Below, one piece after another: positions 5,973 through 32,624 of a stretch of DNA of 64,000 nucleotides (position 1 is its first letter; each line of letters begins with the position of its first letter). A program made the position numbers and the translations under genes. Source of the DNA: a virus (taxonomy: Duplodnaviria > Caudoviricetes); the IMG/VR virus record IMGVR_UViG_3300007965_000002, positions 1 through 64,000 of that record, one strand, 5' to 3'. Under the pieces are notes generated by a model, which was given only the letters and a program-made list of their open reading frames with translations, ran no database searches and was not told the DNA's origin.

Positions 5973-6523
5973 CAACATATTTTACATCAGATTTGCATTT
6001 CCTACACAAGAATATTATTGCGTATAATAGGCCATACTACTCTGATGTAGAAGAAATGAACGAAAGTATTATCAGTACTATCAATAAAAAAGTTACACCT
6101 AATGATACCTTGTACATACTAGGTGATGTAGCTCTCGGCTCTATTACCAAAGCTGTAGATTATATATCACGTATTAACTGTAATATTAAGCTAGTACCAG
6201 GGAACCATGATAATAAGAAAGCCTTAAATGCTTATGAAAAACTATCTAATGTAGAGATTTTGCCAACACTTTGTGAGATAAAGCTAGGGGATAAGACAGT
6301 AGTACTATGTCATTTTCCACTAGTATCTTGGAATAAGATGCATCATGGGGCTTGGCACCTATTTGGCCATACCCACGGCTCTTACGAGGGATTAGGTAGA
6401 TCTATTGATATTGGTTGGGATAACTACTTCAATATATTTAATAAGCCAGGTATATTTTCCACTCAAGACTTGGTAGATATTATGGAAAATAGGCAATCAC
6501 ACCAAGTAGACCACCATAAATAA
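5969..6523 (+). CDS. calcineurin-like metallophosphoesterase
   Basis: SDLH, LGDV, GNHD, CHFP, GHTH motifs. Confidence 0.9.
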   Translation: MTTYFTSDLHFLHKNIIAYNRPYYSDVEEMNESIISTINKKVTPNDTLYILGDVALGSITKAVDYISRINCNIKLVPGNHDNKKALNAYEKLSNVEILPTLCEIKLGDKTVVLCHFPLVSWNKMHHGAWHLFGHTHGSYEGLGRSIDIGWDNYFNIFNKPGIFSTQDLVDIMENRQSHQVDHHK

Positions 6524-8397: not shown

Positions 8398-8798
8398 TGC
8401 CTACAGTAACTATATTACGTGGAGTATCCGGCTCAGGTAAGTCTACTATAGCAAATATGTTAACACAACTAGGTGCTGTAGTAGTATCTGCTGATAAATA
8501 CTTCATACAGCCATTTGGGGGTTATGTATTTGACCCTGCTAAACTAAAGCAAGCACATGAGTATTGCTACGATATGTTCCGTATGGAGTTGCTTTCAGGG
8601 AATGATGTGATAGTAGATAATACTAATACAACAGAAAAAGAAATAGCTAAGTATCTAGAGTTTGCTCAGGAACGTGGTTATAAAGTAACATGCCTAGTAG
8701 TAGAGAATAGACATGGTAGTGACTCAATACATGATGTACCAGAAGAAGTTCGTAAAAAACAAGCTATGCGCCTTGCACAATCAATTAAATTAATTTAG
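8397..8798 (+). CDS. P-loop kinase (polynucleotide-kinase-like, AAA_33)
   Basis: RGVSGSGKST, SAD, VIVDNTN. Confidence 0.8.
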   Translation: MPTVTILRGVSGSGKSTIANMLTQLGAVVVSADKYFIQPFGGYVFDPAKLKQAHEYCYDMFRMELLSGNDVIVDNTNTTEKEIAKYLEFAQERGYKVTCLVVENRHGSDSIHDVPEEVRKKQAMRLAQSIKLI

Positions 8799-25996: not shown

Positions 25997-26249
25997 CTAT
26001 TTATTTGGTCTAAAATGAAAAACATTGTTCTTACCAGGAACCAACCAGGGTTACCGGCAGGTAAACCTGCCCAGCCAGCCAGCCTAGGCAAATATACCTA
26101 TTTCTTGCAAAAGTCGCTTAAATCGCTGTTTTGGCGGCTTCCTGTCGGTGGATAATGTATAAGGGCTGTTTCAATGATTTTTTTATCCACAGGTTATTAA
26201 CAGGTTATACATTATCAACAGGGTTTATAGGCCACCAGCAACATTTTGA

Positions 26250-26266
26250 CAATGGTAAGACCAATT
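26250..26266. promoter_or_regulatory. PdhR-type operator
   Basis: CAATGGTAAGACCAATT versus AATTGGTAAGACCAATT (15/17). Confidence 0.6.
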
Positions 26267-26348
26267 GACCAAGTTATCCACAAAATTATTTTGTTTAATG
26301 TATAACTCACCTGTTAATAAGTCTAGACTTATCCACAAGTACCACACA

Positions 26349-26447
26349 TGCAAGAATCATGCCAAAAAATTTTCGGCGCGGCGAAATGAGAATGATTCTC
26401 ATTTGCATTCAACCCAGTGAGCTACCAGGATGAGAATGATTATCATT
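26349..26447 (-). promoter_or_regulatory. composite module copy 2: sigma54 box, GC motif, two Fur boxes
   Basis: TGCAAGAATCATGCCAA (26349-26365); GGCGCGGCG; AATGAGAATGATTCTCATT (26385-26403); GATGAGAATGATTATCATT (26429-26447). Confidence 0.75.
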
Positions 26448-26470
26448 TGCATATGCAAGTTTGCTAATAC

Positions 26471-26636
26471 AAGTTGGCATGGTTTTTGTTGCGAACTATT
26501 ATCATATGCGTTTTTGCTAATATACCTATATGCAAGTTTGCTAATATTAACATTAGATTCTACTAATATAAGTTGGCATGGTTTTTGTTGCGAACTATTA
26601 TCAACAAGAATCGTGCCAAGTCAAGAATCGTGCCAT
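26471..26636. repeat. 34-bp direct repeat and four sigma54-like boxes
   Basis: AAGTTGGCATGGTTTTTGTTGCGAACTATTATCA at 26471 and 26570; reverse TGGCACGATTCTTG at 26603 and 26620. Confidence 0.7.
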
Positions 26637-27178
26637 AACAGTAAAATCTAATATATAGCTCTAGAACGCGCTATAACGTGATTTGCCGGTACTATTATTT
26701 TTTGAAGCCCTAGTATCAAAACCTTTTTAAAATGCCACCAGCAGCCAAAGCGTGACTTATCCACAAAGTTATCCACAAGCAATGGGGTTGACATTCTCAA
26801 AAGGCCATTTCTATCCACAATTTGCTAGTTATACATAAAAAATCTGTGGATAAGTGAATAACTAGCATGTTTTACAAATGTCAAATTTATTTGAAATAAT
26901 GCTTAACAAAGTTATCCCCACCTGGTAGAGCCTGGACGTGCCCCTTGTGGATAACTATTACCAAATAGGCCGATTCCTTGGATTCTAGGAAAGTTATCCA
27001 CAAAATTACAAACCAGGAAAATTATCTGTGGATAAGTGCCCTGTGGATAAGTACCAAATAGCACCAGATTCAACAATCTATTTGTTTTGATATACGACTG
27101 ACCAAAAAATTAAAGTCGCTTAAATCGCTGTTTTGATGCCTTTACGGGCATATTAGTTATATCTAATATATAACCATG

Positions 27179-27395: not shown

Positions 27396-27470
27396 TTGAC
27401 AATAAAAACGGTTCCATGCAATAATAGCTCCACTGATTAGGCAGCATCCTAAACGTTCTTTAACAATCTG
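27396..27470 (+). promoter_or_regulatory. pre-early promoter with rrn-like boxB hairpin and boxA
   Basis: A-tract UP element, TTGACA-18-AATAAT, TTAGG-CAGCAT-CCTAA hairpin, CGTTCTTTAACA. Confidence 0.6.
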
Positions 27471-28277: not shown

Positions 28278-28745
28278 ATGACTACAACTAAAACACCAGC
28301 TAAAAAATTCGCTTGGAATGATGAAACCTGTTCACAAGCTGCCGCGCTTTATGCTGAATTACTAGGTGCAACTTACAACCCTGTTACTAAAACGCTGGAT
28401 TTTGAAGTTGGTTCGAAGCCTACTGTCGATTTACACACGGTAGCAAACAGCGAAAAAGCTTTAAATGCAATCGCTGTTAAAATTGGGGCGAAATCTGGTC
28501 GTGCTGTTCGCGGTAAGTTATCAAAAGAGGGCGTTTATATTACCCTTGAAGCCGTCCCAACTCCAAGCACCTCGACACGTATCTCAAAAGGTCAGTACGT
28601 GCGTTCAATTGCCGAGGGTTTAGGCGTTGACCTTGAAACAATCCAAACGCTTGATAAGGCCAATTTAGAAGCGTTGGAAACCTTAACAGCGAAATTAAAC
28701 GGAGTGTTGAAAGCTGCCGAAATGCCAGAAATCACTGTTAAGTAA
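28278..28745 (+). CDS. A2: T5 A2-like DNA-binding / second-step-transfer protein
   Basis: FAWNDE..., IA..IGAKS..AVRGKLS, K.QYVR.IA resemble T5 A2; synteny with A1 and dmp. Confidence 0.8.
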   Translation: MTTTKTPAKKFAWNDETCSQAAALYAELLGATYNPVTKTLDFEVGSKPTVDLHTVANSEKALNAIAVKIGAKSGRAVRGKLSKEGVYITLEAVPTPSTSTRISKGQYVRSIAEGLGVDLETIQTLDKANLEALETLTAKLNGVLKAAEMPEITVK

Positions 28746-28782
28746 TTGTTAACTGGGCGTTAATTCTAGCGCCCTTTAATTT

Positions 28783-28798
28783 CCCGTAATGACGGAGT
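28783..28798 (+). promoter_or_regulatory. repeated hairpin-RBS leader CCCGTAATGACGGAGT (also at 29263 and 31335)
   Basis: Three identical 16-mers, each 6-8 nt before an ATG. Confidence 0.75.
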
Positions 28799-28806
28799 AT
28801 TAAAAA

Positions 28807-29244
28807 ATGTTTTCACCCAAACTCAACTTATCTGATTTAGTCGCAGAGCATAAAGGCCATATTGCAGCCGTATTAGATACCCAGTCCGAAATTGAGCGCT
28901 TAAAGGAACTAGCATTTCAGCAAAAAGAAGCGGCTAAACTTGACCGTGATACGTTAACGCAATTAATACGCCAATTGTCTAACGAGCGTCACCCAAGCAA
29001 CAACGGCATGTTGCAAGAAGCAAATGTTAGCGCTTTGCTTGGCGCAATCAATATTAACTTTACTGCTTATAACAGCTCAAATGATGAAGTTAGACTAGCG
29101 TATGATAAGGCCGTTAACGTCTACAATGACGCAATGGTAAAGCTATTTAAAGCAAAAATAGCATATATCGAAAGTTGTGCTGTTTATGGTAGTATGGCAG
29201 GCTTATCGGTTAACTGGCAAGCGCTAGAAAAACGTAGCAAGTAA
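28807..29244 (+). CDS. pre-early helical hypothetical protein
   Basis: ORF after the leader repeat. Confidence 0.7.
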   Translation: MFSPKLNLSDLVAEHKGHIAAVLDTQSEIERLKELAFQQKEAAKLDRDTLTQLIRQLSNERHPSNNGMLQEANVSALLGAININFTAYNSSNDEVRLAYDKAVNVYNDAMVKLFKAKIAYIESCAVYGSMAGLSVNWQALEKRSK

Positions 29245-29284
29245 GCAACCCCTTTAAATTTTCCCGTAATGACGGAGTAACAAA

Positions 29285-30958
29285 ATGAAACAAGTTAAAA
29301 ACCTATCTGTAGCGACACAAGCGGCATTGTTAAATCTTGCTCAAAATGAGTTTAATTATTATGGCAAGCGTACCCGTTCAACTCGCCTAACTTGTGCTGA
29401 ACAAATGCTTAGAGAATGTGAGTTAATCGGAACGGTAGAAAGTGCCGATTTAGTGGAATGGCTGGCAGAAAATAAACCAGCACCAGCACCAGCCAAAGAA
29501 AAAGCCGAAAAAGTTAACGCTCCGTTAGTTCCTACTTTCAACGGCGAGTTAATGCATCGTGACGATATTATGCAAAGCTTACCTGATGGCGTTTATATTA
29601 TTTCTAGTGCGCAAAATAATACATTGCCGCACCCTACACTAAAATCATTAAAAACTTTAGCGGGTGTTTTAGAGGCTCAACTTTTATTGATGCCTATTAA
29701 ATACACAACAACGCTTGATAGCTTGGAACGCAAAACGCCAACTTATGACGATAGTGTTACACCTTATCTAGTAGAGAATAATATCTGGCTAGGTGGTCGT
29801 GGCTGTGTTCGCTTGGCAGTTGGGGCAAATATCCTGCCAACCGCTAAGCAGCCAATTAACACGGCAGCAAACTTGAATAAAGGCGAGTCGTTAACCGTTG
29901 TTGCCTCACCTAAAAAGCAACTCAAAACACTAGCCCGTTCAAAAGATGGTGCACATCGTTGGGTATATACAACGGGTTCATGTACACAACGCCATTACAC
30001 TGACACCAGAGCAGGCGAGGAGGGATGTGATTCACATACGTTCGGGGCATTAGTTGTCACTGTTAATGAGGGTTATGTCGAGCATCAAGAAATTGTGGCA
30101 GATGAAAGCGGGGCATTTTATTATGATATGGCCTGTTATGATGGTTTTAACATAACAGAGATTCACAAGACACCAGCACTAGTTTTAGGTGACTTACATT
30201 GTGAAAAGATGTGCGAAAACTCGCTTGTAAGAGCATTAGCCCAAATTGATATTTATCAGCCCTCACAAGTTATTTTACACGATACACTAGATTTTATGTC
30301 TAGAAATCATCACAATCGAAATAGCGGTTTGTTTCTATATACAATGGGTTCCCGCTCTGTTTTAGATGATTTAAATGATGCTGTTCATGTTGTAAATAGA
30401 ATTGCTGCCCAATGCGATAGCGTTTTTATCGTTTGCAGTAATCACGACTTAGCCCTTGATAGCTGGCTTGATGACCCAAAATACAACGCTGATAAAGACC
30501 CTATCAACGCTAAAACGTATTATTTCTTGAAACATGCTGTTTTAGAAGCAATTGACAGCGGGGACGAACTAGACGCACCACGCTTAGCAATGTTTGATTT
30601 AGCAATCACTAAACTAGTCGAGCAGTTAGCGGAACCATTAGCCAGTAATGTTATATTTGGCCGTCTAGATATGAGCCATAAGATTAACGGATTCGAATGT
30701 GGTTCTCATGGGCATTTAGGTAACAGCGGCGCACGTGGTTCGCAACGCTCGTTTAAAGCTTATCAGATGCCTTGGATTAGCGGCCATACACATTCACCCG
30801 CCCGTGATGGTAATGTGTTAACCGTGGGCGTTACTGGTTCGCTGGAAATGGGCTACAATAAAGGTGGTACTATGTGGGATAGAGCAAACGCCTTAATCCT
30901 GCCAAATGATACAGCCGTATTAATTCCCACGTATGCAATAGGAGAGCAGCAAGCATAA
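29285..30958 (+). CDS. A1: T5 A1-like DNase / DNA-transfer protein
   Basis: 557 aa; IISSAQNNT, TTGSCT..HY, LGDLH, SNHD, HGH.G..GARG, GHTHSP, GVTGSL..GYNKG; synteny. Confidence 0.88.
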   Translation: MKQVKNLSVATQAALLNLAQNEFNYYGKRTRSTRLTCAEQMLRECELIGTVESADLVEWLAENKPAPAPAKEKAEKVNAPLVPTFNGELMHRDDIMQSLPDGVYIISSAQNNTLPHPTLKSLKTLAGVLEAQLLLMPIKYTTTLDSLERKTPTYDDSVTPYLVENNIWLGGRGCVRLAVGANILPTAKQPINTAANLNKGESLTVVASPKKQLKTLARSKDGAHRWVYTTGSCTQRHYTDTRAGEEGCDSHTFGALVVTVNEGYVEHQEIVADESGAFYYDMACYDGFNITEIHKTPALVLGDLHCEKMCENSLVRALAQIDIYQPSQVILHDTLDFMSRNHHNRNSGLFLYTMGSRSVLDDLNDAVHVVNRIAAQCDSVFIVCSNHDLALDSWLDDPKYNADKDPINAKTYYFLKHAVLEAIDSGDELDAPRLAMFDLAITKLVEQLAEPLASNVIFGRLDMSHKINGFECGSHGHLGNSGARGSQRSFKAYQMPWISGHTHSPARDGNVLTVGVTGSLEMGYNKGGTMWDRANALILPNDTAVLIPTYAIGEQQA

Positions 30959-31008
30959 TGTTAGATAGAGATTATAACGGCTACCCCATTAAGTAACTTA
31001 ACCCGCTT

Positions 31009-31024
31009 TGTTCCACGTGGAACA
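31009..31024. promoter_or_regulatory. parS site 1
   Basis: TGTTCCACGTGGAACA within the 24-bp perfect palindrome 31005-31028. Confidence 0.8.
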
Positions 31025-31055
31025 AAGCAACCCCCCTTTTTACGGAGTTACCCAA

Positions 31056-31292
31056 ATGTCACAAGTTAATATCACGTTTACCAAAGACACCCCAGAATCA
31101 TTCGAACCTGAAACAGGGCAATTTTTTCAGGTTAATGAATGCCATACAAACGAATTGATTTTAATAACTGACGACACCCATGTGTGCGTTATTTTATCTA
31201 GTGGTCAATTAATGGACGTTGAAAACCTAGACGAAAAGCTTACCCGCGATAACTTAGTTATTGATTTAAAAATCGAAGCAACCATTAAATAA
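31056..31292 (+). CDS. pre-early hypothetical protein (78 aa)
   Basis: GGAG RBS before ATG 31056; the track start 31008 is unlikely. Confidence 0.65.
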   Translation: MSQVNITFTKDTPESFEPETGQFFQVNECHTNELILITDDTHVCVILSSGQLMDVENLDEKLTRDNLVIDLKIEATIK

Positions 31293-31303
31293 TTAACCCG
31301 CTT

Positions 31304-31319
31304 TGTTCCACGTGGAACA
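31304..31319. promoter_or_regulatory. parS site 2
   Basis: Identical palindrome at 31300-31323. Confidence 0.8.
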
Positions 31320-31358
31320 AAGCAACCCTTTTTCCCCGTAATGACGGAGTATTAAAAA

Positions 31359-31982
31359 ATGAGCCAATTTAAGCCAAAGCATATTACAATTTTTGACCTA
31401 GACAGAACCGTTATAGATAGCGACCATCGCACCCCCTACGATAATGATGGCAACCTAGATTTAGCAGCATATCGCGACAACCAAACACACGCTAACATTA
31501 TGAATGACACACTTTTACCCTTAGCTAAACTTATGCAATCGCGCATAGCCCAAGGGGAAACCGTGGTAATCGTTACTGCAAGGCGCATGATTAAGAGTGA
31601 TTACATATACCTAAGAAAGAACGGATTAAAAACCGCGTATACTTGCAGTCGTGACCAATTATTCAAGCGCTTCGATAATGAAACCGCATCAATGATTTAT
31701 AATCTTAATGATGCAAACTACAAATGGCATTGGTTTAACCATTTACAGAACCGTTTTCCTCTTGCCTCGTTTACTGTATACGATGACCATAAAGGCGTAT
31801 TAAAGGTGGCGCAATCGTTTGGCTTTCAAGTGTACGATGCAATTAGTGTTAATAGTATGCTGGCTGATTTTCTTGATATGGGATTTGAAGAAGGATTTGC
31901 GCAAGGATTAGACGCGGGTTATCTGGACGGGGAAATGAGCGCTATTCATCAGGTAATTGAATTTGACAGCAGAGCAGCCTAA
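31359..31982 (+). CDS. dmp: deoxynucleoside-5'-monophosphatase (HAD)
   Basis: IFDLDRT, VTAR, YDDH HAD motifs; last pre-early gene, as in T5. Confidence 0.8.
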   Translation: MSQFKPKHITIFDLDRTVIDSDHRTPYDNDGNLDLAAYRDNQTHANIMNDTLLPLAKLMQSRIAQGETVVIVTARRMIKSDYIYLRKNGLKTAYTCSRDQLFKRFDNETASMIYNLNDANYKWHWFNHLQNRFPLASFTVYDDHKGVLKVAQSFGFQVYDAISVNSMLADFLDMGFEEGFAQGLDAGYLDGEMSAIHQVIEFDSRAA

Positions 31983-32103
31983 GCGCAATGCTGGTAGTAT
32001 ATGCATCAATGCTAATATAGTGCAATATGTTAGCATTGCATTATCCCCCTGTTAGAGCATTAGCCCTTACTAATATATAGTAAGGGCATTTTTATTATGT
32101 ACA

Positions 32104-32208
32104 AATGATAATCAATATCAAATGAGAATCATTCGCATATGATAAGCCAGGAACAAATGATAATCATTCGCATTTAGGGTGGGGGCGGTAATGAGACTCA
32201 TTCTCATT
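32104..32208. promoter_or_regulatory. four Fur boxes
   Basis: At 32104, 32121, 32156 and 32190 (e.g. AATGATAATCATTCGCATT, AATGAGACTCATTCTCATT). Confidence 0.7.
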
Positions 32209-32305
32209 TGACCCAGGCCCCACCCCTTTTCATGTAACTACTATGAAAAATTAGAGGAAATGGCTTAGGCCGCCTCTAAGAGCAACTAAGCGGTTCCCTG
32301 AAAGC

Positions 32306-32455
32306 AACTATGCATAATTCCCCAACTATGCATAATTCCCATAACTATACATAATTCCCATAACTATGCATAATTCCCCTAACTCCCTATACTCCCTTTA
32401 CTTCCCAACTTCCTATACTCCCTTTACTTCCTATACTCCCCGCACCCCTCCACTC
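32306..32455 (+). repeat. short tandem repeats near the inferred genome end
   Basis: AACTAT(G/A)CATAATTCCC x4, then CCTATACTCCCTTTACTT-like repeats. Confidence 0.8.
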
Positions 32456-32624
32456 CCAAAGAGACTACTAATCTAAAAGACTCCAAATACAATTCTTAAT
32501 TTTTTAATTTAAAAATACTTGGCTAGTACCTTACTTGCATCCGAGGTAGAAAATTAATCTTTACATATATTAATAATAACGTTATAATAACCCTATTATT
32601 AACACACATCTAAGAGGAAAGTAT

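Follow-up and report, generated by a model that had tools for sequence, protein, structure and literature searches.

The virulent Bacillus phage phi29 carries five host parS (Spo0J) sites, and segregation of its genome into the prespore is Spo0J-dependent (Meijer et al. 2005, as summarised in PMC2731898). Bacterial chromosomal parS sites share the general consensus TGTTNCACGTGAAACA, with NGTTNCACGTGAAACN being the consensus for V. cholerae chrI (PMC7022226), and parS2/parS3 of P. aeruginosa are a perfect-palindrome 16-mer (PMC4368675). V. cholerae ParB1 binds parS1 and spreads over ~16 kb, and is able to silence genes as well as a plasmid replicon (PMC4010829); Enterobacteriaceae are without chromosomal par genes (PMC7022226). 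With respect to T5, the left terminal repeat enters first, and conserved DnaA boxes, the role of which is hypothesised, lie in the injection-stop region and are reported for all T5-like phages (Davison, bioRxiv 10.1101/866236).

Here we describe two sites of the chromosomal parS type in the pre-early operon of a marine lytic T5-like phage, in a window of 64,000 nucleotides (positions 1 to 64,000 of IMGVR_UViG_3300007965_000002) taken from an IMG/VR contig of 89.8 kb with an estimated completeness of 77%. The idea of host parS on a lytic phage is precedented by phi29, as covered in PMC2731898; our literature search found no report of parS in T5-like phages or in pre-early DNA.

The sites and their pre-early setting

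The features of the region are as follows.

26183 to 27050, no strand assigned: cluster of 10 perfect DnaA boxes TTATCCACA in both orientations, non-coding, upstream of the pre-early operon
28278 to 28745, + strand: A2-like DNA-binding protein (phrog_1725; PF26822 on homologues)
29285 to 30958, + strand: A1, pre-early DNA-transfer protein, 49% identical to Vibrio T5-like phage A1
30998 to 31033, + strand: copy 1 of the 36-nt direct repeat TTAACCCGCTTTGTTCCACGTGGAACAAAGCAACCC, containing the parS-1 core
31009 to 31024, no strand assigned: parS-1, perfect 16-bp palindrome TGTTCCACGTGGAACA
31056 to 31292, + strand: orf78, small pre-early gene of 78 aa, between parS-1 and parS-2
31293 to 31328, + strand: copy 2 of the 36-nt direct repeat TTAACCCGCTTTGTTCCACGTGGAACAAAGCAACCC, containing the parS-2 core
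31304 to 31319, no strand assigned: parS-2, 16-bp core identical to parS-1
31359 to 31982, + strand: dmp, deoxynucleoside-5'-monophosphatase (PF26880 on homologues), last gene before the presumed genome end
31983 to 32560, no strand assigned: non-coding block with repeat arrays, from dmp to the small terminase gene

The preliminary description had reported a duplicated sequence flanking the 78-aa ORF located between A1 and dmp, with a core equal to the bacterial parS consensus and with no parA or parB in the window, and all three statements hold. The duplicates are exact 36-nt copies (100% identical), each with a 24-nt perfect palindrome (31005-31028 and 31300-31323). The A1 stop lies 50 nt before parS-1 and the orf78 start 31 nt beyond it; the orf78 stop lies 11 nt before parS-2 and the dmp start 39 nt beyond it. 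The cores fit the chromosomal parS consensus, a 16-bp inverted repeat TGTTNCACGTGNAACA, and both are identical at 16 of 16 positions to parS2/parS3 of P. aeruginosa (PMC4368675). Matches to TGTTCCACGTGGAACA occur only at the two core positions, both in the 64-kb window with up to three mismatches allowed and in the entire 89.8-kb contig with up to two, and there is no excess of half-sites in the window (13 copies of GTTCCAC and 5 of GTTTCAC, compared with ~8 expected). Searches with ParB_N, HTH_ParB, AAA_31 and CbiA gave no match in the 89.8-kb contig (77% complete). The sites are neither origin-proximal nor parAB-linked; given their location in the pre-early operon of a phage without parA/parB, they are not part of a complete ParABS locus. 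They are thus parS-like in predicted action, yet stand outside any such locus.

Upstream, the window holds 18 copies of TTATNCACA in all, 10 of which are the DnaA boxes within 26183-27050; from its match to Davison's description, we take this block to be the predicted counterpart of the T5 injection-stop region. Downstream, the small and large terminase genes start from 32625, and the non-coding block at 31983-32560 is presumed, by synteny with Vibrio phage phi 3 only, to be the collapsed terminal-repeat boundary, i.e. the leading end. For orf78 no Pfam or PHROG family was matched.

Several other repeated elements are present in this part of the phage. Fur-box-like 19-mers with 3-5 mismatches to GATAATGATAATCATTATC lie at 32101-32210, 26385-26450 and 25158, a set that includes a four-copy 20-nt repeat family in the dmp-to-terminase interval. 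Just before the small terminase gene, at 32306-32460, are four tandem units of the AACTATGCATAATTCCC type (18-19 nt), followed by ~9-nt units resembling CTCCCTATA; these tandem arrays may be close to where the terminal repeat ends or to a packaging site. Three pre-early genes are each preceded by a conserved 30-nt cassette for translation initiation (TTTCCCGTAATGACGGAG...ATG; 28780-28809, 29260-29289 and 31332-31361), and the usual spacer order in the phage group of the window is stop, hairpin, parS, CCC...GGAG, ATG.

Recurrence and conservation in related phages

Megablast of the window region against GenBank phages gave no match, and a single-protein A1 search of IMG/VR gave no close relative; close relatives were found via A1 matches in a protein database, and their contigs were then fetched. 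Exact TGTTNCACGTGNAACA sites, one to four in each, are present in all four of the other phages with A1 70-76% identical (L123-L126, which are one phage from four samples, L127, L128 and L129). They lie at the same A1, small-ORF and dmp intergenic junctions, with flanks that are unrelated between phages. The layout A1, site, ORF, site, dmp is found both in L127 and in L123-L126, the latter with two further sites in the neighbouring gene block; in L128 and L129, which have one site each, the small ORF is absent and a site lies directly between A1 and dmp. Counterparts of parS-1 are thus at the same place in L123, L127, L128 and L129, and those of parS-2 (orf-to-dmp) in L123 and L127, with parS-2 also being matched by the dmp-proximal site of phi 3. 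Homologues of orf78 itself are present in L123 and L127, and the small ORFs that occupy its place in phi 3 and Brizo are members of other families.

The extra exact sites of L123 (1811-1826 and 2150-2165), each preceded by the same 20-nt sequence, lie on the far side of a non-coding block and are without a counterpart in the window phage. One is in a spacer immediately upstream of a leftward gene; that at 2150-2165 falls within the 3' end of the next leftward ORF (2137-2490) and is immediately upstream of where the 1832-2137 gene starts.

Sites also occur in a second and distant clade, with A1 36-38% identical. An A1 profile gave 80 IMG/VR loci, which were scanned for sites (939 kb). Exact sites were found among these loci in L139/L140 and L141 (one site in the latter), and sites matching at 15 of 16 positions in L142 and L144/L202, each adjoining A1 or dmp; a reversed control pattern gave no match with up to one mismatch in the same 939 kb. 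L139/L140 is Vibrio phage phi 3 (KP280063; host V. cholerae 1051), a complete linear genome of 116 kb with annotated terminal repeats of 7,769 bp. Its left repeat contains sites at 821-836 (between dmp and a small ORF) and 2934-2949 (between A1 and A2), which recur in the right repeat and are found nowhere else in the 116 kb; both fit the V. cholerae chrI consensus NGTTNCACGTGAAACN (PMC7022226). The search of related phages for parS that had been proposed at the outset therefore yields exact sites in the four close relatives, in phi 3 and in L141.

Comparison of 13 sites, those of the second clade included, with flanks of 16 nt, reveals that 14 of the 16 core positions are invariant (2.0 bits). 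The sole variable ones, positions 5 and 12 (~1.1 bits), are the degenerate positions of the bacterial consensus, being T/C and A/G, respectively, with all four combinations present, such that the two half-sites vary independently. Mean information is 1.89 bits per position in the core, compared with 0.29 in the flanks. This footprint shows selection and, along with the T5-like lytic gene set, supports the initial claim of parS-type sites in the pre-early DNA of a lytic phage.

The distribution of the sites among T5-like phages is patchy. There is none in the whole genomes of T5 (121,750-bp record), pVp-1 and Brizo, none near A1 in ~50 enterobacterial T5-like loci and the V. harveyi group, and none in intermediate relatives with A1 50-56% identical (four phages in six contigs, L216-L221). 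The total absence in the enterobacterial T5-like phages sampled matches the lack of chromosomal par genes in Enterobacteriaceae, and the presence of sites in V. cholerae phages and their absence from the sampled enterobacterial ones fit the earlier suggestion of a host other than E. coli. The intermediate relatives and the phages of V. harveyi and V. parahaemolyticus are without sites though their likely hosts carry ParB; since many T5-like phages of ParB-bearing hosts thus lack them, the sites look accessory and dispensable rather than a core part of two-step injection. Nor does their presence track A1 or A2 similarity: the A1 of the window is 49% identical to that of the site-less pVp-1 and Brizo and 37% to that of site-bearing phi 3, while the A2 of phi 3 is nearest to that of pVp-1 (45-46%) and only 28% identical to that of the window. 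This patchiness speaks for a host factor as the binder, and against one that is encoded by the phage and co-evolves with the sites.

The V. cholerae phage JSF10 (KY883654, L212), which is 96% identical to phi 3 over the 3-kb stretch compared, has sites at 6416-6431 and 8564-8579, both with a central G-to-A change relative to phi 3 (CACGTG to CACATG). L142 has the mirror central change, CATGTG, and JSF12, another cultured V. cholerae phage, likewise has a central site variant. The same central change in both JSF10 sites is unlikely under neutrality (roughly 0.01 by estimate); it may mean that ParB binding has been tuned or weakened, or that the central CpG is a mutational hot spot. Escape from a restriction enzyme recognising CACGTG was considered and rejected, given that JSF10 keeps five other CACGTG hexamers intact genome-wide.

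Candidate binders and alternative readings

We consider it likely, from the sequence comparisons above, that the two cores are true parS sites of the chromosomal type, maintained by selection within the pre-early operon. With no ParB encoded by the phage, the most likely binder is the chromosomal ParB of the host. For the cultured site-bearing relative phi 3, the host species V. cholerae is described as having ParB1, which binds NGTTNCACGTGAAACN (PMC4010829, PMC7022226). In the complete genomes of phi 3 and JSF10, no ParB was found above the cut-off. Two sub-threshold matches of ~13 bits were obtained, one in the D5 protein (annotated in phi 3), which we take to be a T5-family early protein, and the other in a 76-aa ORF; a phage-encoded ParB was rejected, these matches lying below the cut-off.

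ParB binding and spreading, first entry and all the downstream consequences are what we infer, as follows. The terminal-repeat end with dmp, orf78 and A1 would enter first, and ParB dimers would nucleate on the sites in the first 1-1.5 kb. ParB would then close as CTP clamps and spread across a few kb of the first-injected DNA, giving an assembly resembling a partition complex, such an assembly being expected given the ~16-kb spreading of ParB1 (PMC4010829). This would link the phage DNA to the host ParA positioning system, with pole or nucleoid anchoring, so that the phage genome would be held and positioned, and partitioned in slow or stalled infections; damped A1-dmp transcription is a possible side effect. 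By analogy with phi29, coupling to host positioning or partition, with retention in slow or stalled infections, is the favoured outcome; pre-early silencing, end protection and ParB titration are possible alternative ones.

The placing of the sites near the entering end derives from phi 3, in which the dmp end is the physical left end and the first site is 821 bp from it. The window has the same order as phi 3, i.e. A2-A1-orf-dmp, non-coding DNA and terminase genes, which matches what is expected for an assembly with a collapsed repeat. The distance of 1.2 kb from the leading end given in the preliminary description is unreadable here because the terminus is not assembled; the leading position itself is supported by phi 3 synteny, which puts the window sites probably ~0.7-1.6 kb from the entering end. 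Sliding ParB clamps would be expected, from in-vitro ParB work, to be lost over a free DNA end that lies under 1 kb from the site, which makes ParB accumulation on fresh linear DNA uncertain.

It may also be that host ParB does bind, with a hostile or regulatory end, i.e. ParB titration, shut-off of a toxic pre-early operon, or shielding of the DNA end from nucleases, an outcome we regard as possible if rather unlikely. Genes close by are silenced when ParB1 spreads, and in E. coli a parS1 plasmid was kept from replicating because its initiator gene was silenced in this way (PMC4010829); moreover, the sites are in an operon that T5 shuts off early (as quoted from Davison 2015). The shut-off option is set after the host DNA has been degraded, and the phi 3 genome has sites in both terminal repeats. 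However, T5-like phages degrade host DNA anyway, such that titration seems superfluous, and the promoter-like site that scores best for the pre-early operon (27396-27425) lies ~3.6-3.9 kb upstream of the sites, with other promoter-like candidates up to ~1 kb further upstream.

A more distant prospect, which we judge improbable, is that the sites are operators for a phage pre-early DNA-binding protein (A2 or an A1/A2 complex) acting in second-step transfer or autoregulation. An A2 DNA-binding family gene is present ~2.3 kb upstream, the sites are always within the A2-A1-dmp operon, and T5-type injection requires cis sites of unspecified sequence (Davison, bioRxiv 10.1101/866236). Against this, all 14 fixed positions equal host parS, with degeneracy at the same two positions; A1 and A2 are present without a site in T5 and all the sampled enterobacterial relatives; and the phage has no match to a ParB-type HTH. 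The pattern of A2 identities between phi 3, pVp-1 and the window, as given above, likewise disfavours an A2/A1 operator.

The preliminary description had named as its refuting case a palindrome acting only as an RNA hairpin, and the window taken by itself gives some reason to consider one. As RNA, its copies form a 10-bp hairpin of -15.6 kcal/mol (z -4.6 and -5.3), and the palindrome is followed by a C-run and T5 (U5) and is flagged as terminator-like; the first L123 site also gives a hairpin, of -15 kcal/mol, via an extra half-site, and every site is intergenic within one operon. However, the U-run in the window begins 5-8 nt past the stem, and the palindromes do not behave as an intrinsic terminator, taken as a stem with an immediate U-tract and a structure kept in relatives. 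In L123 and L127, the folding energy of the orf-to-dmp site is only -1.8 and -3.3 kcal/mol, respectively, no better than for shuffled sequence; in seven of the 13 sites the stem is broken by a C·A pair at positions 5/12 (mRNA sense), with no compensatory change; and a separate GC-rich terminator hairpin adjoins the site in L127, L128, L129, L141 and phi 3. The conserved block is exactly 16 bp, whereas stem extensions vary among relatives. Together, the 16-bp footprint, the broken stems, the poor folds and the separate terminators indicate that it is the 16 bp of double-stranded DNA that are under selection; the longer hairpin of the window phage is a lineage-specific addition. A solely RNA-level role (intrinsic terminator or attenuator, RNase III site or 3' stabiliser), with the parS match incidental, is therefore contradicted by the folds of the relatives and the 13-site conservation, and was rejected as very improbable. 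The strong hairpin of the window allows for a second role, in that its 24-nt palindrome probably doubles as a 3' hairpin of the A1/orf78 mRNA and, given the hairpin and U-run, RNA-level selection may contribute to the site in this phage.

That the sites match parS by chance, or are left over as neutral sequence from host DNA once captured, is hardly credible. A lone 16-bp palindrome could turn up by chance in one window when the scan is very large, and one of 100 window shuffles gave two matches with up to three mismatches. However, at least six distinct phages, from two clades and with flanks that have diverged, share exact sites in homologous places, compared with ~0.004 exact matches expected in 939 kb (939,000 x 4^-14) and none for the control pattern, such that it is conservation in relatives, rather than the window alone, that excludes chance.

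Wider occurrence, significance and comparison with known systems

A palindrome scan of IMG/VR (site loci L003-L122; control loci L213-L235) found perfect TGTTCCACGTGGAACA in at least 120 contigs, versus 3 for the reversed sequence and 12 for a half-site-swapped palindrome. Among the matches listed, ParB_N is absent in 37 of the 39 contigs of at least 25 kb and in 14 of the 15 among these 39 that are estimated to be at least 90% complete. From these counts and those of the controls, chromosomal parS without a ParB of its own seems to be widespread among viral contigs. One contig, L021 (IMGVR_UViG_3300028027_000193), is an AT-rich (31% GC) fragment, estimated 10% complete, of a large phage unrelated to the window. 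It has two perfect TGTTCCACGTGGAACA copies (1505-1520 and 1802-1817) that are 297 bp apart, share ~12 of 14 adjoining nucleotides on one side and, as in the window, bracket a small ORF (89 aa), just upstream of a large ORF that is FEN/5'-3' exonuclease-like by eye.

How T5-type phages hold and protect their first-injected DNA, and finish its transfer, is a decades-old question, for which a conserved candidate docking site for a host clamp protein at most 1 kb from the entering end is a genetically testable handle. The cultured V. cholerae phages phi 3, JSF10 and JSF12, along with the well-studied host ParAB1, make the question ready for the bench. An ambitious extension, which we put forward tentatively and regard as unlikely, is that the host ParB CTP-clamp has been recruited into two-step transfer by some T5-like phages, with the first-kilobase DNA being anchored or organised (with DnaA on the box array) in a manner affecting second-step entry, pre-early shut-off or free-end survival, and that orphan host parS sites are a widespread, so far overlooked means by which lytic phages engage the chromosome machinery of the host. 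Wide occurrence of orphan parS, if true, would turn what is known from phi29 alone into a strategy general to phages, and would bear on ParB-parS imaging tools, on host prediction (the host must have ParB) and on phage-host chromosome mimicry.

With respect to the chromosomal parS of Gammaproteobacteria, the phage sites share the identical 16 bp or an exact consensus fit, with the same two variable positions; they differ in that they are not near oriC, are unlinked to parAB and lie in 5' UTR-like pre-early spacers. The DnaA-box arrays of T5-like phages are similar, being sites for a host DNA-binding protein that are conserved in the first-step-transfer DNA; they concern another host protein, however, and are reported in all T5-like phages, whereas parS is present in two non-enterobacterial clades. 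In the partition cassettes of P1, P7 and N15, a phage genome also makes use of a ParB-parS complex, but these phages are temperate, with their own ParA and ParB and element-specific parS, in contrast to the orphan chromosomal-type sites of a lytic phage described here.

The likeness to phi29, as that phage is summarised in PMC2731898, is that a lytic phage without its own ParB carries at least two host-consensus parS sites, with a host ParB homologue implicated. The same summary describes a Gram-positive spore-forming host and entrapment in the prespore, which is impossible in Vibrio-like hosts, the known hosts of the cultured relatives being Vibrio, which are non-sporulating; a carrier-state analogue of spore entrapment may be conjectured for them. 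The phi29 sites are, again as summarised, spread over a 19-kb protein-primed genome, whereas those of the T5-like phages are confined to the first-injected terminal repeat of a ~110-kb phage that injects its DNA in two steps.
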